From a phage: 64,000 nt of DNA. Positions 3,221 through 51,994 of the stretch are shown here, piece after piece. Position 1 is the first letter of the stretch; each line of letters begins with the position of its first letter. The notes beneath the pieces are model-generated. The model worked only from the letters and a program-made list of their open reading frames with translations. It had not been told where the DNA came from and made no database searches. The stretch is taken from sequence record PZ445551.1; one strand, written 5' to 3'. Position numbers and translations under genes: made by a program.

Positions 3221-3584
3221 AAATATCCTCCCAAATCCAATAATCATCTGTGTAAGTAGGATGCCTTTTATCCCACTCTGTTCTAGCCCAAGCAACCGCT
3301 GCTACCAACACATCACCATGACAAGGTTGAGGTGAGCAGAAGCAAACTAAGTCTTTCCCTTCTAATTCTAACAAATCCTCAAGAGTGATTTTACCACAAC
3401 GAATTTGTTCCCACAACCACTCTTTATATCTTTGTATAGTTGATCCTCGTGGTTCATCATCCTTTAACTTAAAAGGATTTGCAAACTTTGAGGCTTTTAA
3501 CCCCATATGAGGCATAGCTCTGCCAATGTACACTGCACCTTCAGGTATTACTTTACCTAAGTGGTAAAAATTTAATACTTTCAT
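3198..3584 (-). CDS. DUF4326-like protein
   Basis: Motifs VYIGRAMP, ANPF and LVCFCSPQPCHGDVLV resemble DUF4326 as recalled; TAATATG coupling with upstream gene. Confidence 0.6.
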   Translation of the reverse strand: MKVLNFYHLGKVIPEGAVYIGRAMPHMGLKASKFANPFKLKDDEPRGSTIQRYKEWLWEQIRCGKITLEDLLELEGKDLVCFCSPQPCHGDVLVAAVAWARTEWDKRHPTYTDDYWIWEDIYEDYTRN

Positions 3585-3585
3585 A

Positions 3586-3936
3586 TTAACCCAAACACAT
3601 TTGTGCAATCAAGCCCTGTATAAATTTATTAGCTTCTTTACTGTCGTAGTCAGTCTCTTCTGGATATCCATCTTCATCGTACACAACTGTACCTTCAATA
3701 TACCCTGCCTCAATTAAGGCGCGGATCATATCAAATTGCCAGCATGAGTTACCAAATGGACGTTTACCATTAAAACACTCTTCTTCTCTCCATAACGTAG
3801 AGAGTAGTTGTCGGAAATATTCCCGTACAGTGACAGTACCAAGATCTGAATCCTCAAACATAACATCCAGGGCATCAGGATTGCTTTTCTCTACATAAGG
3901 GATATATTTAACACCATTAATAGTTACATCAAGCAT
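3586..3936 (-). CDS. hypothetical protein (116 aa)
   Basis: ORF in same-strand block. Confidence 0.55.
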   Translation of the reverse strand: MLDVTINGVKYIPYVEKSNPDALDVMFEDSDLGTVTVREYFRQLLSTLWREEECFNGKRPFGNSCWQFDMIRALIEAGYIEGTVVYDEDGYPEETDYDSKEANKFIQGLIAQMCLG

Positions 3937-4299
3937 TTATTTCTCCTTATCATCATATTCTAAGAACATATCTGCACGATATGCTTTACGCTCTTCAAAC
4001 TTAGCAGGATCTACAACAATAAGCAATACAAGGTTAACATCTAAATACTTCTTAACAAATAGAAATAAATCTTTTCCACAGTTAAAACCTACACCAGTAT
4101 AGGCATCCCCATATTGATCTACTGATTTAATCTTCTTACTAACCGTACACTCTATGCTATTCTTTTCTTCTTGGTATAAGGCTTTCCCACCCCAATATGT
4201 AAAGAATTTAGTACCGTCAGCACCAAGTTTAAAACCCTCTGTTGCATGTCCCGCAAATGAAAGTAAACATAACCAAGTGATCATCAGGTACTTTAGCAT
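3937..4299 (-). CDS. putative secreted protein or lipoprotein (signal peptide MLKYLMITWLCLLSFAGHA)
   Basis: Hydrophobic N-terminal signal-like segment; start refined to internal ATG adjacent to upstream stop. Confidence 0.5.
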   Translation of the reverse strand: MLKYLMITWLCLLSFAGHATEGFKLGADGTKFFTYWGGKALYQEEKNSIECTVSKKIKSVDQYGDAYTGVGFNCGKDLFLFVKKYLDVNLVLLIVVDPAKFEERKAYRADMFLEYDDKEK

Positions 4300-4300
4300 T

Positions 4301-4783
4301 TTAACCACCCAATTGCAAATGTTTAGAAAGAACAATATCCCACTGATCACCACAACCGTTATCTATGCGGAACATAATGTACGTATCATCTTCTTCTACG
4401 ACATATAATACCTCATAGGAATTACAACAGCCTTCCCAATTTTTAACAGCCTCTGGTGTATCATGTGTAAAAATTTCATTACCATCATATGACCAAAACA
4501 AAGGGGTAAGGTTTTCGAAGGTCAGTGAAGTAGGGTTTACTTCATCTTTAACTGCTTCCTCATATTCTTTATGCGTTTGTACTGCTTTAGTTAGTGTACT
4601 CATGTCTATCTCCTTTTCTCCTTCTTGACTATGGAGGATAGCAAACTCTCTAAACTCCACTTCACGCCATGTTTTCAGGTAGTGCTTTATAATTTTATCA
4701 ACATCTGCCTGTTCAACATTACTTTTCAAGCAATAGTAATCATGGTCTTCGCCCATTCTACCCCATATGCTATACATTGTCAT
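4301..4783 (-). CDS. hypothetical protein (160 aa)
   Basis: ORF in same-strand block. Confidence 0.55.
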   Translation of the reverse strand: MTMYSIWGRMGEDHDYYCLKSNVEQADVDKIIKHYLKTWREVEFREFAILHSQEGEKEIDMSTLTKAVQTHKEYEEAVKDEVNPTSLTFENLTPLFWSYDGNEIFTHDTPEAVKNWEGCCNSYEVLYVVEEDDTYIMFRIDNGCGDQWDIVLSKHLQLGG

Positions 4784-5051
4784 CTGATTGATCCTTTACA
4801 TTGTTCTTGGCATACACAGGAATAACATCATTGTGATCTTTATTACTTTCATCTGTTAAAGCCCAAAACAACTTACCTGCTGGATGTTTAAAGATGTAAG
4901 CAATAGGTTCCTCTTCCTGGGCTTCTTTGCTACGGATACCATCCCGCCAGGCAAGCCAAGTGTAGATCATCACTTCTTGACGTTCTTCTTCGTTAGGCCA
5001 CATATGTGGTGGAAAGTTTTTATCAAACCATTGCTTAAATTCTTCAGTCAT
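4770..5051 (-). CDS. hypothetical protein (93 aa)
   Basis: ORF in same-strand block. Confidence 0.5.
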   Translation of the reverse strand: MTEEFKQWFDKNFPPHMWPNEEERQEVMIYTWLAWRDGIRSKEAQEEEPIAYIFKHPAGKLFWALTDESNKDHNDVIPVYAKNNVKDQSDDNV

Positions 5052-9451: not shown

Positions 9452-10579
9452 ATGAAATACACGATTTATGGTGATATTGTAAGTGTAAATAAAGATATGG
9501 GCGTGGAATCTAACTATCTTCCACCAGGATTCTATACTGTTAGTCGTGATCCCCTTGGCAATTATTTTTTAAGCCGTGGTAATCTGACAGGTGTACCGGA
9601 TGTTTTGTATGGTGAAACAGAAAAACGAGCAAATCACGTTATCCGTACATTCCATCGCCGGAGTGCACAAGGTAAAAACACAGGCTTGCTTCTGACAGGA
9701 ACTAAGGGCAGTGGTAAAACTATGTTAGCCAAACTCATTAGTCGTGACCTTGTAGAAGAAGGTATTCCAACTATTATGGTTACTCAAGCCTATAGTGATG
9801 CTAATTTCATTGAACTTATTAGCAAGATCACCGACAAAGCAGTGATTATTTTTGACGAGTTTGATAAAGTATATGAGAAGAAACAAGATCAAGAAGCACT
9901 TCTCACTTTGTTAGATGGTACTGGCAGTGGTAATAAACTGTTTATTCTGACTAAAAACAGTGGTTTTATCTCTGAATTCTTTTTAAATCGTCCTAGTCGT
10001 GTGTTTTATAATTTTAATTATGATAAAATCTCACTAGAAACTATGATTGACTATTTAGATAAAAACCTGGATAACAAAGCACACTTTGATAATTTCCAAA
10101 GACTTTGGGATGTAAGTTTAGAGTTGTCCTTTGATGTGATCCAAGGTATAGTAGAAGAACTTAATTTCTACCCTGATTTATCCTTTAAAGAATGTATCTC
10201 TATGATGGGCGTTTCTTTAGGTGGTGGTAATAAATGGGATATCAGCAGTGTTGTTATTAATGGGAAACTTCAGAAAGTTAGCTGGGTATCTAGTTGGCAT
10301 AACTTTACACCTGCAATCTTTTTAGGTGGCTCGTGCACACTAGACGTGTACTTGTCATCTCCAAGTGATGCAGACTCTAAAGAAGCCCTTGCTAATAGCT
10401 CTTACGTGGTTTTTGATGATGAAGGAGATGCTCGAATTCCATTGAATGCGACAAAAATGAAAGCAGATCTTATTACAGGCGGTAAAATCGTTGTGTTTAG
10501 TGATGATCCAGAAGATTCTTTCCGTATTGTTCTGGAACCAACTATCACCAATGGTGCAACTTTGGCAAGTGTGTTTTAA
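9452..10579 (+). CDS. AAA+ family ATPase
   Basis: Walker A GTKGSGKT, Walker B IIFDEFDK. Confidence 0.75.
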   Translation: MKYTIYGDIVSVNKDMGVESNYLPPGFYTVSRDPLGNYFLSRGNLTGVPDVLYGETEKRANHVIRTFHRRSAQGKNTGLLLTGTKGSGKTMLAKLISRDLVEEGIPTIMVTQAYSDANFIELISKITDKAVIIFDEFDKVYEKKQDQEALLTLLDGTGSGNKLFILTKNSGFISEFFLNRPSRVFYNFNYDKISLETMIDYLDKNLDNKAHFDNFQRLWDVSLELSFDVIQGIVEELNFYPDLSFKECISMMGVSLGGGNKWDISSVVINGKLQKVSWVSSWHNFTPAIFLGGSCTLDVYLSSPSDADSKEALANSSYVVFDDEGDARIPLNATKMKADLITGGKIVVFSDDPEDSFRIVLEPTITNGATLASVF

Positions 10580-45581: not shown

Positions 45582-46244
45582 TTATTTAATATTCAATTTT
45601 GCACAAAGACGTTGTACCGCTTTGGCATCGAACAAACTCCCACGAATAGTTCTCTTTCCTGATTCATTCAGATGTTTTGCAATCGTCATATATGGCGTTT
45701 TACAAGCTCTGTATGCAACTAAAGAATCTTTTAAAGAAAGCGCAAACTCTTTTGAGCGTTTTGCTTCTTCCGTTTTCGTATAATCTGTTCTTTTGTATTT
45801 AGGGTTTGCTGCACCAAGAAGCGTTCCCTTCGCTTTTGCTACTTTAAGGCTCTTCTTAACACGATCAGATATTGCACGAGCCTCTTCTTCTGCCAGAACT
45901 GCTAAAATATTTATTATCATATTTTCAGCGGAGGGCATAGTTGCTATTCGTACATTAATCATCTCTAACAAGGTTGCAACAGAAGCTGTGTTACGTCCAA
46001 GACGGTCAACCTTAGCAACAACAAGTGTAGCACCTGTTTCTTTGCAAAGATTAACAGCTTTTACAAGCTCTCTACGTTGCTTCCAATCGCCTTTACCCGA
46101 ATAAAACTCTGCAAAGCTACCTACAATAGTATAATTTTCTTGTGAATCCAGGAAGCGTTGGATATCTGCTTCCTGTGATTCTATACCATACTGGTTGCCT
46201 TGTTGTTTCTTCTTAGAAAGTCGATGATACAGTACAAACTTCAT
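45582..46244 (-). CDS. serine recombinase (resolvase/invertase family)
   Basis: N-terminal YHRLSKKKQQ with catalytic Ser context, VVAKVDRLGRN motif; own TTGACT-N17-CATACT promoter-like element upstream. Confidence 0.7.
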   Translation of the reverse strand: MKFVLYHRLSKKKQQGNQYGIESQEADIQRFLDSQENYTIVGSFAEFYSGKGDWKQRRELVKAVNLCKETGATLVVAKVDRLGRNTASVATLLEMINVRIATMPSAENMIINILAVLAEEEARAISDRVKKSLKVAKAKGTLLGAANPKYKRTDYTKTEEAKRSKEFALSLKDSLVAYRACKTPYMTIAKHLNESGKRTIRGSLFDAKAVQRLCAKLNIK

Positions 46245-46301: not shown

Positions 46302-46505
46302 TTAAGTAGTGGTAATATCATCTTCTTGAATATCAGGATCAACTTCTGCAAAGATAGCTTCTACAGGAATTTCTTCACCTGCTATTCTAGAAAGAAGCAC
46401 TGAACCAATAGCTTTTGCGTGTTCTTCGGATTCCGCATAAACATTAGTCCCTGTGTCTTTTTTCTTAGTTTCGTTAAAATATACCAGATAGTAATTGTAT
46501 GCCAT
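46302..46505 (-). CDS. hypothetical protein (67 aa)
   Basis: Start refined to MAYNYYLV (TAATG coupling). Confidence 0.5.
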   Translation of the reverse strand: MAYNYYLVYFNETKKKDTGTNVYAESEEHAKAIGSVLLSRIAGEEIPVEAIFAEVDPDIQEDDITTT

Positions 46506-46756
46506 TATTCTTCCCAATCGTTGTTACGAGCATTTTCAAGAACCTTGACAACTTCTGCATACTCTACAGCTAAACCAGCACACACTTCAGCTTGTTTTGC
46601 AATTGCTTGTTTAAAGAACATAGCGATTGCAACACTCTGTGTTGTGTGAATGTTATCTGCTTTAGTTGATACGTGAAGATCAAAATCTTCTTCATCAAAG
46701 GTGAGTTCCATAGTAACAATAAATTTCTCGGTCATAAAAATGCTCCTCTTAAACAA
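46505..46756 (-). CDS. hypothetical protein (83 aa)
   Basis: ORF in same-strand block. Confidence 0.5.
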   Translation of the reverse strand: MFKRSIFMTEKFIVTMELTFDEEDFDLHVSTKADNIHTTQSVAIAMFFKQAIAKQAEVCAGLAVEYAEVVKVLENARNNDWEE

Positions 46757-47258
46757 AATAGAAAGGTTGAGTTAAACCCAGCCTGTTTTTTGGGTCGTAG
46801 ACGTACCAAGCATATGCTGTCTTATCAGTACCACCTGCAACAAAAGATGGTCGTTCAGAAAGAACAATCAAATTTGTTGGTGGATTCTGTTTATGGAATT
46901 CCCTTCGTTTAATAGACTCTAGGAAACCAAGACGCAACAAGTATATGCAAACGTCTGCTTCTTTTAAGCTCTTTTGCAAGAACTCAAGTGCAAGTTTGAA
47001 TGGGGGATTTGTGATTATAATATCCGGCTTAGTATGCCATTCGTGGTTAAAATAATCTTTCCCTTCTTCTAACTCACAATATTCTGATCCTTCTGGAAAA
47101 TGTTGATAAATTGCAGCAGCAGCGCCTTTACACGGTTCTGCAAAAATAAAACCTTCTTCTTTAAGGTTATTAAAATCTATTACACTAAATAATGCATTTA
47201 TACATTTTTGTGGAGTAGGATAGTAATCAGTTGGTGGACGATCATACTTATTTGCCAC
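46749..47258 (-). CDS. small phage Dam-like DNA N6-adenine methyltransferase
   Basis: DYYPTP and IIITNPPF (NPPF catalytic motif); size typical of small phage adenine MTases. Confidence 0.6.
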   Translation of the reverse strand: MANKYDRPPTDYYPTPQKCINALFSVIDFNNLKEEGFIFAEPCKGAAAAIYQHFPEGSEYCELEEGKDYFNHEWHTKPDIIITNPPFKLALEFLQKSLKEADVCIYLLRLGFLESIKRREFHKQNPPTNLIVLSERPSFVAGGTDKTAYAWYVYDPKNRLGLTQPFYFV

Positions 47259-47676
47259 TACTTAAAATCTCCTCTTTTGTGATTTCAGGGTCTTCTTCAA
47301 AAACCATAATATCTCTTAAGAACGTTAATTCTTCCATAGATACTGGTATTGTATCTTCTTCTGTTTTTCGTTTACATAAATCGTCAAGAAAGTTTTTAAA
47401 GTTTTCTGACAAATCGTAAAATTTCAACAGTTGATAATCACAGGAGGAGATCCTATCTAGTTCTAACATTCTTTCTAAGATATTTTCTGTGTTGCCATAC
47501 AGCACACGAACTTCTCCGAAAGGGTTGACTGAGTATTGTGAAGTTCTGAACCATCCCTTTTTAGATACAGTGTAACGCTGTTCTGCTAAACTTTCAATAA
47601 AATTTTTAGCTCTTTTACAGTTTTGTTCTAAAGAGTAGTAGGCTTTTTCTACAAAGGTTACAGGTACTGGTAACAT
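47248..47676 (-). CDS. hypothetical protein (142 aa)
   Basis: Preceded by hairpin and SD AGGAGGAG on minus strand. Confidence 0.55.
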   Translation of the reverse strand: MLPVPVTFVEKAYYSLEQNCKRAKNFIESLAEQRYTVSKKGWFRTSQYSVNPFGEVRVLYGNTENILERMLELDRISSCDYQLLKFYDLSENFKNFLDDLCKRKTEEDTIPVSMEELTFLRDIMVFEEDPEITKEEILSSGK

Positions 47677-47688
47677 ATCTCCTCCTAA

Positions 47689-47708
47689 TAACCCCCTTGC
47701 GGGGGTTT
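47689..47708 (-). terminator. hairpin + short U-tract upstream of SD
   Basis: ACCCCCGCAAGGGGGT then TTATT on minus strand. Confidence 0.4.
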
Positions 47709-47716
47709 ATACTAGA

Positions 47717-48370
47717 TTAATTATCAGAGGACACTTTATCAAGTTTTTCAGAGACTGTCAATACTTTTTCTTGTGATTCTTTCATTTCTGCTAAAATACT
47801 TTCAGCTTCATCACTATCAGGATCACCAGTCAACAGCATACTAATTAGTTGCTCCTTGCTGAAGTTCAGAATATCTTCCGCTGTTAGCTCCAGTTGTTCT
47901 TCGATCTCTTCAATAAAAGTTTCACCGCCGGAAAAAGCATCTCGTAGTTTTGCAACTTCCATCGCTTCTTCTGGAGTTGCCCCTGCATCTAAAGCTGCTA
48001 AAGCAAAATCTGCCCCACTACCAACAGCATAATAATCTTCAGTTAAAGGATATGCTCGCGTGGGATTATTACCCTCGTGCATATAAATTTTACCGTCTGG
48101 GTGAACAACCAATGCCACAAATTCTTCATCTTCTTTATCAGGATCTGACTGGATCACCAAACCTGGGATTGTCTCTTGTGCTGCTTGGCATTGTAAGTTT
48201 TGTTCGAACCAAGAAAAGAAAGTCAGGATAGAAGACAGACGTCCTGCACCACCAACAAGGTAGTCCCCAATTTTACGCACTTTCTTGAAATTTAAAGTGT
48301 CTACACGACTACCTACTGTTACTTTACCGTCAGACAGAATTTTGTTACGTGTTGCAATAATTGTTGTCAT
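47717..48370 (-). CDS. hslV: HslV-like (proteasome beta-type) peptidase with acidic C-terminal extension
   Basis: N-terminal MTTIIATR (Thr nucleophile after Met), KKVRKIGD, AVGSGADFALAALDAG align to HslV. Confidence 0.75.
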   Translation of the reverse strand: MTTIIATRNKILSDGKVTVGSRVDTLNFKKVRKIGDYLVGGAGRLSSILTFFSWFEQNLQCQAAQETIPGLVIQSDPDKEDEEFVALVVHPDGKIYMHEGNNPTRAYPLTEDYYAVGSGADFALAALDAGATPEEAMEVAKLRDAFSGGETFIEEIEEQLELTAEDILNFSKEQLISMLLTGDPDSDEAESILAEMKESQEKVLTVSEKLDKVSSDN

Positions 48371-48861
48371 TGTACTTCCTCCTGTAGTGTTTTAAGGACT
48401 GCTTTACCACCGCTTACATATTTACGGAGGTAATCAATAGCTCTTAGTGTTTCTTTATCCACAAGAATTTTATTAGTTCTTGTTAGTGGATGATTTAGTA
48501 AATCACTGCAATTTCTTACTAACATAGATTTCTTGTGAAAGATACTGCTAAGAAAAAGAAGTTTAGAATCTTCTTCATCAATCAGGAGTAATTCTGAATT
48601 AGACCCAGCTATATTTATTATACACTCAAACAAGCCTTCTTGACTATCAGATAATTCCTGGTAATATTTAGTTAGCCAATCCTCGCCTTTTAACCAACTA
48701 AAAAACATCTGAACTTTTTGCAAAGTTGTCATGTTCTCTAAACGAAGAGATATTTCTTTTTCAATCTTGTCAATATAAATCTGTCTAAACTCATTCGGCT
48801 TAACTAAGCCAGCTTGATAGCATTCATCAATACCATTGCGATCAATCTCAATTAGCGTCAT
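48367..48861 (-). CDS. hypothetical protein (164 aa)
   Basis: ATGA overlap with hslV-like gene. Confidence 0.55.
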   Translation of the reverse strand: MTLIEIDRNGIDECYQAGLVKPNEFRQIYIDKIEKEISLRLENMTTLQKVQMFFSWLKGEDWLTKYYQELSDSQEGLFECIINIAGSNSELLLIDEEDSKLLFLSSIFHKKSMLVRNCSDLLNHPLTRTNKILVDKETLRAIDYLRKYVSGGKAVLKTLQEEVQ

Positions 48862-48897
48862 TTAACCTCCATAACAGGCATCCTTGCCTTGTAATTA

Positions 48898-49650
48898 TTA
48901 ATATACTTCCGTGATGAACTGAGACAAACGGGAACGTTGGTTATCAGCAGTTGTCATTTCAACATAACCAATAAAATCCACAATAGCTTCCCTTTCTCCT
49001 TCTTCATTAATAGGAACAACACGATCTAACAAATCACCTAACCCGTTAGCTCTTCGTTTAATTGCATATGTTTGATTAACATCACCCATAATGACAATAC
49101 GTGTATTAAGACCTGCTCGCTCAAGGAGAAGTTTTACTGTATTTGGTGACATAAGTTGAACTTCATCAATAAGAATAATGCTGTTATCCCACGTAGCACC
49201 TAGTGCATAGTTTGGAATATTAAGTTCAATTTTGCCACTTGCAATATCGTTTTCCAATTTATTTGCAGTCATAAACTGTTGGAAAATTCTTTTAGTTGAT
49301 TCGTAGTGTGCTGCTAGTTTATCAGTCTTATCTCCAGATAAGAAACCAATTTGATCATCACCTACTTCTGTCGGGTTTTTAAGGAAAATCAACTTTCTGA
49401 AATCACCAGCTTTAAGCATTTGCAATGCTTTCCACAGTGCTGTTGTCGTTTTTCCTGTTCCTGCTGGGGCATTAACAATGGTTAAATCATTCCAAACCAT
49501 GCTTCTTACAATAGCTTCTTGATTCCCAACAGGGGTAAATTCATCAAGACGGTAATCATCATTTCCTACTGCTTTAGCCGCATAACGACTGGCACGTTTG
49601 TCATCATTGGCTGCTGATTGACGACGAGCCTTTGCGGTTTTATTTCCCAT
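48898..49650 (-). CDS. phoH: PhoH-like ATPase
   Basis: NAPAGTGKTT Walker A, IIDEVQLM Walker B, IVIMGDVNQ. Confidence 0.8.
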   Translation of the reverse strand: MGNKTAKARRQSAANDDKRASRYAAKAVGNDDYRLDEFTPVGNQEAIVRSMVWNDLTIVNAPAGTGKTTTALWKALQMLKAGDFRKLIFLKNPTEVGDDQIGFLSGDKTDKLAAHYESTKRIFQQFMTANKLENDIASGKIELNIPNYALGATWDNSIILIDEVQLMSPNTVKLLLERAGLNTRIVIMGDVNQTYAIKRRANGLGDLLDRVVPINEEGEREAIVDFIGYVEMTTADNQRSRLSQFITEVY

Positions 49651-49661
49651 GTTTGCACTCC

Positions 49662-49686
49662 TTATAAAAGGGGCTTTCGCCCCTTT
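49662..49686 (-). terminator. hairpin + U-tract module between lysozyme and phoH
   Basis: GGGGCGAAAGCCCC then TTTTAT, then SD GGAGTG on minus strand. Confidence 0.5.
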
Positions 49687-49688
49687 GT

Positions 49689-50189
49689 TTAGTTATAAGC
49701 GTCTAATGTTCCAGTTTTAAGTACCTGAATTACACGCTCTGCGCGATTAGGCGTTTGGCGATACCATTTACTTTTACGTAAATTTATAGAGGCTTGAGTA
49801 TAATATGAATTACTCACTAAAGTCAAGCTATTTTTGAAAGATTCTGCACCTTTCAATCCCATTTGAAATACCATATTGATAATAGCCATTTTACGATTAG
49901 GACTTACTTTATCGTAAATAGGAGATAATATGGTACTTGAATGGATTTGTTGTATCGCTTTCTTTACGTCACTTTCAAAGATTCTTCTAGCTTCCGCTTC
50001 AGTAATAACTCCATTGGTTTTTCTACCTACTAAGTTATCAAGAATGCGTATAGCTTCTGCTTTATCTTTGAGTTTTGTCAGAAGGTGTCCAATACCAACT
50101 GTCCAATACCCTTCGGTATCAGGATATACAGTTAGCTTTAGTCCTTCATCAAAACGTAACATATCAAACACATCAACTACTTTAGCCAT
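49689..50189 (-). CDS. e: T4-type lysozyme (endolysin, GH24)
   Basis: MLRFDEGLKLTVYPDTEGYWTVGIGHLLTK and INMVFQMG, WYRQTPNRAERV align to T4 lysozyme. Confidence 0.92.
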   Translation of the reverse strand: MAKVVDVFDMLRFDEGLKLTVYPDTEGYWTVGIGHLLTKLKDKAEAIRILDNLVGRKTNGVITEAEARRIFESDVKKAIQQIHSSTILSPIYDKVSPNRKMAIINMVFQMGLKGAESFKNSLTLVSNSYYTQASINLRKSKWYRQTPNRAERVIQVLKTGTLDAYN

Positions 50190-50201
50190 GTTTTCCTTAT
50201 A

Positions 50202-50345
50202 TTAGTCGCCCTCCCCATGATCTAGCTCTTGAAACAGTAGGTGTTCAGGAGACATTTCACGTTTAGGCTTCGTCTTTTTAGTTTGGGACTTAAGCTCTGT
50301 TGCCAAAGCACGAGAAAAGATTTTACGTTTCTGTTTACCTTTCAT
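50202..50345 (-). CDS. small Lys-rich protein (about 47 aa)
   Basis: Not in ORF track; SD GGAG upstream; approximate coordinates. Confidence 0.3.
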   Translation of the reverse strand: MKGKQKRKIFSRALATELKSQTKKTKPKREMSPEHLLFQELDHGEGD

Positions 50346-50349
50346 ATTG

Positions 50350-50610
50350 TTACTCCGCAATCTGAGCCATGAATTCACGTAGTTCAGAAAAACCTCCTAC
50401 GTGGGTTAGCTGTTCACCATCTTCCACAAAAATCTGAGGAAATGTGCGTGGTAGAACACCTGTTTTCTCTAAAACCAGATTCTGAATCTGATCTAAAGAA
50501 TAGTCTTCATCTAAGGTAAGGTATTTAAAATCCTGTTCACGCTGTTCTAGTAGAATCTTAGCGTTAGTGCAGAAAGGACAATTTGGTTTACCGTAGATAA
50601 TAAAATTCAT
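50350..50610 (-). CDS. glutaredoxin-like protein
   Basis: Active-site KPNCPFC; start refined to MNFIIYG with SD AAGGAG. Confidence 0.7.
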   Translation of the reverse strand: MNFIIYGKPNCPFCTNAKILLEQREQDFKYLTLDEDYSLDQIQNLVLEKTGVLPRTFPQIFVEDGEQLTHVGGFSELREFMAQIAE

Positions 50611-50612
50611 TT

Positions 50613-51443
50613 TCACTCCTTGTTTAAAAGTATAGTTAAAGTTCTTACAATACCGCTATCAACACTTCGCGGATTTAAAGTAGGATCTGTTTTTAAATAA
50701 GATGTTGCTGGTCTGACTGCTTTTGAATTATAGGTTGAAGCAGATACAGGATTAACTGTAACAGATAAATCTATAACAAGAAATATCTTTCGTGCAAAAT
50801 CATACCAAGAAATATAATCTGCACCTGCATAGTGTACAATTTTACTATTTACACCATCTTTTACAAGTTTAAAAATTGTTTCTGCAAGATCAGGTGCATA
50901 AGTAGGACATGATAAATGATCACATACTACATTAAATTCTTTTTGACCACCGTTGTAGCGTTCCAACATAGTTTTCAAAAAGTTATGTCCAAATTCACTA
51001 TAAACAGAAGCTGTTCGGATAATAAGTGCTGTAGGACAAACTGTTTGTACTAAAGTTTCACCTAATTGTTTACTATAACCGTAGGTGTTCAAGGGGTTTG
51101 TTTTACTATCTTCTGTACCAGCAACATGCCCATCAAAAACATAGTCTGTTGAAATATGTACAAACTGTATCAGTAAATCATTACATGCTTTGGCAATGTT
51201 TGTTGCACCGTATGCATTAACATTTATACAGGTGTTAACATCTTCTTCAGCTTTATCTACTGCCGTGTAAGCCGCACAATTCACAACAACATCAGGCACA
51301 TGCTGTACAAGACTATTCATAACATCTTTAAAGTTGGTAATGTCTACATCACTTGCTTCAATCAAAATAACATCTTCGGGCGCAACTTTTGCCAAAGACT
51401 GTCCTAATTGACCTTTTGAACCAAAGACTAAAAATTTTGTCAA
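50613..51443 (-). CDS. rmlD: dTDP-4-dehydrorhamnose reductase
   Basis: GSKGQLG, AAYTAVDKAE, STDYVFDG, YGYSKQLGE; probable TTG start with SD AAGGAG. Confidence 0.88.
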   Translation of the reverse strand: MTKFLVFGSKGQLGQSLAKVAPEDVILIEASDVDITNFKDVMNSLVQHVPDVVVNCAAYTAVDKAEEDVNTCINVNAYGATNIAKACNDLLIQFVHISTDYVFDGHVAGTEDSKTNPLNTYGYSKQLGETLVQTVCPTALIIRTASVYSEFGHNFLKTMLERYNGGQKEFNVVCDHLSCPTYAPDLAETIFKLVKDGVNSKIVHYAGADYISWYDFARKIFLVIDLSVTVNPVSASTYNSKAVRPATSYLKTDPTLNPRSVDSGIVRTLTILLNKE

Positions 51444-51994
51444 AATATGATCTCCTTTAGTGTTTTGGCTTCCTGATCTTTTTGTGACAAGATAGGTTTA
51501 AAATTAATATCATTAAAGATTAAATCAAAACCCCAATCTATATTGATATCTGGATCATTCCACGCAAGACTACACTCTGAAGTCGGATCGTAATATTCTG
51601 TACATTTGTATTCAAAATCAGCAATATCACTAATCACAACAAAGCCATGAGCGAAACCAGGAGGAATCCAAAATTGTGTTTTATTCTTTTCAGATAAGAG
51701 AACACCTACCCATTCTCCAAATGTTGGACTACCAACCCTAATATCTACAGCAACATCATAAACTTCACCACGAACACAGCGTACTAACTTCCCTTGTGGG
51801 TTTTTCTTTTGAAAATGAAGCCCACGTAGAACTCCTCGGATAGAACGTGAATGGTTATCTTGGACAAAGTTTTGTTTACCTATGTATTGATCATATAAAG
51901 CCTGATTAAAACTTTCTAAGAAAAAGCCACGTTCATCTCCATAAACGTCAGGTTGAATGATCAACAAGTCTTCGATTTTTGTTGCTTGAATCAT
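51440..51994 (-). CDS. rmlC: dTDP-4-dehydrorhamnose 3,5-epimerase
   Basis: GDERGFFLESF, RGLHFQ, KLVRCVRGEVYDVAVDIR, IPPGFAHGF. Confidence 0.9.
   Translation of the reverse strand: MIQATKIEDLLIIQPDVYGDERGFFLESFNQALYDQYIGKQNFVQDNHSRSIRGVLRGLHFQKKNPQGKLVRCVRGEVYDVAVDIRVGSPTFGEWVGVLLSEKNKTQFWIPPGFAHGFVVISDIADFEYKCTEYYDPTSECSLAWNDPDINIDWGFDLIFNDINFKPILSQKDQEAKTLKEIIF

Follow-up and report, generated by a model that had tools for sequence, protein, structure and literature searches.

The DNA examined here is a 64,000-nucleotide stretch of phage genome (sequence record PZ445551.1; hereafter the window), which carries on its minus strand, at 47717..48370, a gene for a proteasome-like peptidase of 217 amino acids (aa) with an N-terminal threonine (Thr). 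Over 46500-50500, the window matches Escherichia phage VivaForever (PP925843.1) with 100% identity, and phi92 as well as further Justusliebigvirus genomes with ~99%. The source, judged by sequence, is VivaForever, a phi92-like Justusliebigvirus coliphage with a 146-kb genome; positions 48201-112200 of its record, reverse-complemented, give the window. The coding sequence corresponds to VivaForever CDS0095 and is of the phi92 gp058 type, and its product is called gp058 below. It is the sole proteasome-like open reading frame (ORF) detected in the phage genome with a profile of the peptidase family. The gene was annotated previously, under the depositor labels "peptidase HslV family," "20S proteasome," "putative proteasome component," and "nucleophile aminohydrolase." Phage homologues of HslV and the proteasome that lack an AAA+ partner are also already known: they were described by Fuchs, Alva, and Lupas (2021; PMC8665760) and noted in a second paper, where the orphan status was remarked for a different phage (PMC7823757).

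Directly upstream of the peptidase lies orf164 (48367..48861, minus strand; PHROG 14834), a gene of unknown function whose TGA stop overlaps the peptidase ATG by 4 nt (ATGA, 48367-48370). The Shine-Dalgarno sequence AGGAGG of the peptidase (48378..48383, minus strand) is placed 7 nt 5' of its ATG, within the 3' end of orf164. A PhoH-like P-loop ATPase, recognized by Pfam, PHROG, and NCBIfam matches, is encoded further upstream (48898..49650, minus strand). Downstream of the peptidase lies orf142 (47248..47676, minus strand; 142 aa; PHROG 15078), also of unknown function, which is conserved in enterobacterial phage relatives.

The protein gp058 is a proteasome-type Thr peptidase, with a match far above chance. 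It belongs to PHROG 1040 ("peptidase HslV family"; E 1.3e-61), passes narrowly the threshold of the Pfam family PF00227 Proteasome (25.1 bits vs. a gathering score of 22.4), which is matched by 39 of 46 relatives at E up to 1, a limit looser than the gathering score, and hits HslV chains in PDB at E down to 5e-8. An AlphaFold2 monomer model (mean pLDDT, the predicted local distance difference test score, 83) has the alpha-beta-beta-alpha sandwich of N-terminal nucleophile (Ntn) hydrolases, and Foldseek searches with this model retrieve HslV, archaeal and eukaryotic 20S beta proteins, and BPH, with E of ~1e-9 to 1e-10 and probability 1.0. Because these PHROG, Pfam, PDB, and Foldseek matches agree, the proteasome-type core with MTTI start that had been proposed in the first-pass annotation, made from the letters alone, can be regarded as real, and the protein is counted in the proteasome-like superfamily (PF00227, MEROPS T1).

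The catalytic Ntn core spans residues 1-155 (47906..48370, minus strand), as delimited from conservation in relatives and from secondary structure in the model. The catalytic set of the proteasome comprises Thr1, Asp17, Lys33, Gly47, Ser129, Asp166, Ser169, and Gly170 (Fuchs et al., 2021). Its equivalents in gp058 are Thr2, which takes the place of Thr1 once Met is removed, Asp14, Lys30, Gly43, and Ser118 (for Asp17, Lys33, Gly47, and Ser129), and Asp144, Ser147, and Gly148 (for Asp166, Ser169, and Gly170). In a set of 19 close relatives and ~58 representatives at ≤50% identity, residues M1, T2, T3, D14, K30, G43, S118 (in GSG), D144, S147, G148, and G149 are invariant, or nearly so with at least 90% conservation, and such retention of the catalytic positions over ~58 divergent relatives points to purifying selection on an active enzyme. 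The protein starts with MTTI and has GSGADFALAALDAG at residues 117-130. An N-terminal MTT is found in 50 of 57 long-form and 78 of 93 short-form relatives (both forms are described below), which indicates an enzyme made without propeptide. Methionine aminopeptidase strips Met from Met-Thr N-termini, including that of E. coli HslV, which likewise starts with MTTI. With this N-terminus, the lack of a propeptide, and the action of the aminopeptidase as in E. coli HslV, it is unlikely that the catalytic Thr stays unexposed after Met removal. The model has one long helix (residues 45-67) and, directly after it, an acidic loop at residues 68-84 (IPGLVIQSDPDKEDEEF) that contains DPDKEDEE; helix H2 is missing.

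Searching 1.84 billion cluster representatives with a profile returned 57 clusters at E<1e-30, all of them long forms of 165-350 aa, and 1241 clusters (50% identity) at E<1e-10, where the non-long matches listed are mostly 137-160 aa and have the MTT start. Long and short forms alike fall in PHROG 1040. PPH is a ~140-residue group I proteasome-like protein of tailed phages and prophages, with unknown function and the reference sequence WP_042125023.1; PPH and RPC lack helix H2, and PPH is also devoid of S12/H5 (Fuchs et al., 2021). The continuity of the hidden Markov model (HMM) search from gp058 to short MTT proteins, the shared PHROG, and the loss of H2 place gp058 with these phage proteins, and its sequence fits a long form within the PPH-type phage clade. 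The genes of several short relatives are flanked by the lysis cassette on one side and by the genes for small and large terminase on the other, both in lambdoid-like contigs and in Pseudomonas phage phiAH14a (7569-8138, 7785-8267, 7761-8249, and 3327-3797 in the coordinates of their own loci), which is a classic "moron" or accessory position.

The label HslV is unsupported in its strict sense. Both NCBIfam HslV equivalog models are failed by >100 bits (TIGR03692, 31.6 bits vs. a cut-off of 157.75; NF003964, 34 bits vs. 137), gp058 and E. coli HslV share 28.7% identity across 140 residues, and the model lacks H2. By sequence, gp058 is not an HslV orthologue, and the HslV identity assumed in the first-pass annotation is not supported. 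The same annotation considered hijacking of host HslU, ClpX, or ClpA. According to this explanation, HslV-like rings would dock on one of these unfoldases and redirect ATP-dependent degradation to host proteins. It would agree with the MTTI start and a KKVRK segment, which resemble E. coli HslV, with HslV as the best PDB match in both sequence and structure, and with the hosts of the family, which are all gamma-proteobacteria and are generally understood to have hslVU. However, beyond the catalytic residues no family-conserved position is HslV-specific. In HslUV structures, the apical helix pair H1/H2 faces HslU and has a docking role, but the predicted gp058 structure has no H2, i.e., lacks half of this pair. 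Lys28 of HslV, which we take to bind the C-terminal carboxylate of HslU, aligns with a Thr that is variable in the phage family. ClpX and ClpA, in turn, dock on ClpP, which has a different fold and which they contact through IGF/IGL loops. The failure of the equivalog models, the loss of H2, and the variable Thr all disfavor docking on host HslU, and hijacking of a host unfoldase is unlikely; among the options listed at the outset, an enzyme that acts alone is the more likely one.

No gene for a cognate unfoldase was found in the phage itself. No HslU-like gene adjoins the peptidase, as had been observed from the letters, and no gene for HslU, ClpX, ClpA, Lon, or FtsH is annotated anywhere in the complete 146-kb genome. 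Three "ATPase" genes were inspected, one of which encodes a small AAA_33 kinase-like protein. Two paralogous AAA ATPases of PHROG 2376 (375 and 386 aa), encoded at 9452..10579 (plus strand) of the window and, outside it, at 116729-117889 of PP925843.1, are labelled variously "FtsH-like protease" or "ATPase," and the group is widespread in Herelleviridae, Felix-O1-like, and jumbo phages. As candidates for the missing unfoldase they were rejected, since none of the NCBIfam models for Clp, HslU, Lon, or FtsH recognizes them, and they are weakly Hda/DnaC-like and have no HbYX-type C-terminus; moreover, they occur in ~380 phage records, mostly without the peptidase, and several peptidase-bearing Vibrio phages do not have them. 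Since a dedicated AAA+ unfoldase is lacking, an HslU-independent peptidase is to be expected.

The region following the core distinguishes the long forms. The first-pass annotation described a 40-residue acidic tail absent from HslV; the absence from HslV holds, whereas the extension is longer (~62 residues, 156-217) and its first ~35 residues form a conserved helical motif. The extension contains 17 D/E vs. 5 K/R and has an isoelectric point (pI) of 4.05, in a protein that is acidic as a whole (pI 4.3). The motif (residues 156-190, EEIEEQLELTAEDILNFSKEQLISMLLTG...; 47801..47905, minus strand) is the hallmark of the long-form family, and its consensus, ...SGGE-x5-EE-x3-LTxExLxxMSKEELLxLLFG, is kept in all long forms, as seen in the representatives at ≤50% identity. 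AlphaFold models it as two short helices, 164-169 and 172-181, with pLDDT of ~70-80. In five of 46 members the motif gives sub-threshold Pfam matches, to Rho_N (three), Ish1 (one), and T2SSK (one), a weak hint in the sequence of a docking element of the helix-extended-helix-like kind. The remainder (residues 191-217 and the stop codon; 47717..47800, minus strand) is a variable tail, modelled as a low-confidence helix, which differs in length and sequence among relatives; some of these carry extra regions here, and no known Pfam domain was found in their longer C-termini. The idea that the motif is a targeting tag common to other phage proteins was discarded, as there is no significant second match genome-wide; the best second match to the motif HMM is the C-terminus of orf142 (...FEEDPEITKEEILSSGK; E 0.15, not significant). 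C-termini of these homologues point away from the presumed rings and are possible interaction sites (Fuchs et al., 2021).

A natural deletion bears on the function of the gene. In the homologue search, a 267-aa protein of phage VEcB was found to join PhoH residues 1-113 to peptidase residues 63-217. DNA alignment with VEcB (NC_052663.1, the species exemplar) identifies the absent segment as 48186..49306, a 1.1-kb in-frame deletion with 9 bp of microhomology at the junction, which takes PhoH residues 114-250, the whole of orf164, and peptidase residues 1-62 including the catalytic Thr, Asp, and Lys. RefSeq labels the fusion "peptidase HslV family." If the assembly is correct, then PhoH, orf164, and the peptidase are dispensable for propagation on a laboratory host, which speaks against an indispensable part in morphogenesis and suits an accessory function that matters under certain conditions. 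A second apparent natural truncation, in P0072, was dismissed as merely a mis-called start in one record.

The deletion also speaks against gp058 as a virion or prohead maturation protease. Phages commonly encode such an enzyme, and in the 371-aa gene that this phage has between its portal and decoration genes, no protease domain is recognizable. However, VEcB remains viable although its peptidase has lost the catalytic N-terminus, the peptidase gene resides in an oppositely oriented nucleotide-metabolism module distant from the head genes, and its short relatives occupy accessory slots in unrelated phages. A maturation role is therefore very improbable.

Conserved gene order makes the upstream neighbors candidate partners. 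Each long-form locus inspected (30-odd loci of ~12 lineages, down to 32-38% identity, including Escherichia, Klebsiella, Aeromonas, Vibrio, and Shewanella phages and metagenomic contigs) has a PhoH-like gene 0-4 kb upstream of the peptidase and on its strand, whereas none of the short-form loci inspected has one nearby; in Shewanella phage 1/40 the PhoH gene stands immediately 5' of the peptidase gene. The long-form loci share a gene order that also involves glutaredoxin, lysozyme, methyltransferase, DprA, and recombinase genes, so the linkage to PhoH may reflect inherited synteny of one large myovirus lineage. The orf164 gene is directly 5' of the peptidase in enterobacterial lineages and is co-conserved in Stephanstirmvirinae-like phages; it is absent from Vibrio, Shewanella, and Aeromonas relatives, and small unrelated ORFs fill its slot in Vibrio phages.

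The orf164 product is all-alpha in its AlphaFold model (pLDDT 93), for which no meaningful structural neighbor was found in PDB. The first-pass annotation was right in calling this 164-aa ORF unrelated, as it has homology to neither HslU nor the proteasome fold, although it is located upstream and not, as stated there, downstream. The possibility that orf164 is a degenerate, alpha-subunit-like proteasome paralogue was raised by an FFSW string common to both proteins and by a tandem in Aeromonas phage 2L372D, and was rejected on the basis of BLASTP (E 0.11), hhalign (probability 0.06%), the all-alpha model, and the lack of conservation of FFSW in homologues. Phage 2L372D has a second, divergent proteasome-like gene in the orf164 slot: gp210 (3432-3983; a 183-aa short form with MTC start) is followed by gp211 (4001-4885; a 294-aa long form). 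Such a tandem of proteasome-like genes raises the possibility of hetero-oligomeric rings.

The peptidase might therefore be part of a phage module with orf164 and/or the PhoH-like ATPase, recruited via the C-terminal motif, in which the partners could act as adaptor, cap, inhibitor, or non-AAA+ motor. The constant PhoH linkage of long forms and its absence from short-form loci would be explained in this way, as would the overlap of orf164 with the peptidase start, the co-conservation of the two in enterobacterial lineages, and a single natural deletion that hits exactly PhoH, orf164, and the peptidase. Against this, the order from glutaredoxin to recombinase is shared as well and may represent inherited synteny rather than functional coupling, and Vibrio, Shewanella, and Aeromonas relatives keep the C-terminal motif without having orf164. 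PhoH-like proteins are akin to superfamily 1 (SF1) helicases according to Pfam, NCBIfam, and PADLOC, and are not known unfoldases; PhoH also occurs in many phages that do not have this peptidase. Such a module is rather unlikely. A bolder version, which is improbable, would make the long-form peptidase, the coupled orf164, and PhoH an unrecognized phage machine, where the peptidase is fed or targeted by a non-AAA+, SF1-helicase-like ATPase or a dedicated adaptor via the C-terminal motif, which may be of the helix-extended-helix-like kind; if true, the machine would act early in infection to remodel host proteins or complexes of RNA and protein.

The reading of gp058 that we prefer, and to which we give about an even chance of being correct, is that of an active Thr1 peptidase of the phage PPH-type lineage, probably self-assembling and HslU-independent, with a C-terminal element for docking or regulation. 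Host methionine aminopeptidase would take off Met1 and expose Thr as the N-terminal nucleophile, which would hydrolyze peptide bonds with the help of an oxyanion hole formed by glycine and of the conserved Asp, Lys, Ser, Asp, and Ser residues. By analogy with HslV and BPH, subunits would probably form stacked rings around the active sites. The enzyme might work without ATP, and its substrates might be peptides, proteins in an unfolded state, or a small number of specific targets; the outward-facing helical motif and acidic tail may serve as the docking or regulatory element. The peptidase would be expressed as a tight bicistron with orf164, within an early or middle nucleotide-metabolism module downstream of PhoH, and would provide an accessory function that is unneeded for plaque formation.

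A specialized Ntn enzyme rather than a general protease might be considered instead, acting in site-specific processing, as a connectase-like transpeptidase or ligase, or as an amidase on a non-protein substrate. [quoted passage not shown] However, gp058 keeps the full proteasome catalytic set, including the equivalents of Asp166, Ser169, and Gly170 (RDxxSGG), and its model has no connectase-like insertion between S3 and S4. This explanation has, in our estimate, a low probability.

Several points weigh against an autonomous, ring-forming peptidase. To our knowledge, all known hosts encode HslU, ClpX, and ClpA, which would permit recruitment of a host unfoldase. The enzyme would not stand alone if its invariable neighbor PhoH and the coupled orf164 were genuine partners. 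The loss of H2 could block ring formation entirely, and Fuchs et al. (2021) caution that quaternary structures in these homologues may be unprecedented; the absence of H2, however, is itself taken from an AlphaFold model whose alignment held only 19 sequences. An error of assembly could also account for the VEcB deletion, despite its preserved reading frame and the microhomology at its junction. Finally, the searchable literature yielded no functional study of gp058 or of any PPH.

GC-rich hairpins are found in successive intergenic gaps of the region (47693-47705, 48876-48889, and 49667-49686), each ahead of the next ribosome-binding site. The first (CCCCCGCAAGGGGG on the coding strand; 47693..47705) directly follows the peptidase stop and precedes the ribosome-binding site of orf142, and the second (48876..48889) lies between PhoH and orf164, so that these two flank the pair of orf164 and peptidase. 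The hairpins could be terminators, attenuators, or RNA-processing punctuation. PADLOC models of anti-phage defence gave no match for the peptidase, orf164, or orf142. Next to PhoH is a T4-lysozyme-like gene of 166 aa (49689..50189, minus strand), on which records disagree (endolysin, baseplate hub lysozyme, or hypothetical); a second endolysin is encoded at 128386-128895 of the record. Genes for a dTDP-rhamnose RmlD-like reductase/epimerase and an RmlC-like 3,5-epimerase (50613..51994, minus strand) adjoin a glutaredoxin gene, which suggests a phage-encoded nucleotide-sugar pathway. On the other side, a 220-aa serine recombinase ("DNA invertase"; 45582..46244, minus strand) is present in this strictly lytic myovirus, with comparable placement in Shewanella phage 1/40.

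Phage proteasome homologues are widespread (>1,200 clusters at E<1e-10 when grouped at 50% identity), and the interest of gp058 rests on a widespread phage enzyme of unknown function, its possible partners, and a phage with a natural deletion. If the enzyme degrades specific host proteins, e.g., those of defence or stress responses, phages would have in it a takeover tool of a new type; it would also offer a simple model of unfoldase-independent proteasome-like proteolysis. Added here to what was already known are the separation from true HslV, a long-form subfamily defined by its C-terminal motif, the candidate partners orf164 and PhoH, and the natural knockout phage VEcB, which should ease phenotype tests.

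Compared with known systems, gp058 resembles HslV in fold, MTTI start, Thr nucleophile, and the equivalents of Asp17 and Lys33 (T2, D14, and K30 in gp058), and HslV is its top PDB match by sequence and by structure. The two differ in that the second apical helix of HslV fills the place of the gp058 loop 68-84, a difference read from a model with a shallow alignment, and in that gp058 keeps the proteasome-type RDxxSGG where E. coli HslV has GDICIYTN. The 62-residue C-terminal extension is present in gp058 and absent from HslV. HslV (ClpQ), the peptidase subunit of HslUV, forms a double hexameric ring and has its activator, the AAA+ unfoldase HslU, encoded alongside it, whereas the phage genome has no hslU gene. 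BPH of Thiobacillus denitrificans (PDB 5ovs) is an orphan double-ring homologue with no known unfoldase, matched structurally at E ~6e-9, and has an acidic loop after its first helices, at a place equivalent to that of the DPDKEDEE loop of gp058. BPH is, however, a cellular protein with two apical helices and no C-terminal helical extension, whereas gp058 is phage-borne and has one helix and the extension.

RPC (reference sequence WP_140207863) has a core like that of PPH, to which a structurally uncharacterized C-terminal part is added, and has been reported only from genomes of proteobacteria (Fuchs et al., 2021). Judged by this description, gp058 is similar in having a core without H2 and a C-terminal addition; it differs in that its family is carried on genomes of lytic phages, and no gp058 relatives were found in representative bacterial genomes (one per species) with narrow patterns that reach close relatives only. 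Likeness to PPH includes carriage by tailed phages or prophages, the MTT start, the lack of a propeptide, and the lack of an AAA+ partner, in agreement with Fuchs et al. (2021), who found no co-occurring AAA+ interactor for the new homologues including PPH. The compact core of the gp058 model, without H2 and S12/H5, likewise corresponds to the published description of PPH. In contrast to PPH with its ~140 residues, gp058 has 217, made up of a core of ~155 and the 62-residue extension with helical motif and acidic tail, and its sub-lineage of ~57 clusters is, unlike PPH as described, always linked to PhoH.

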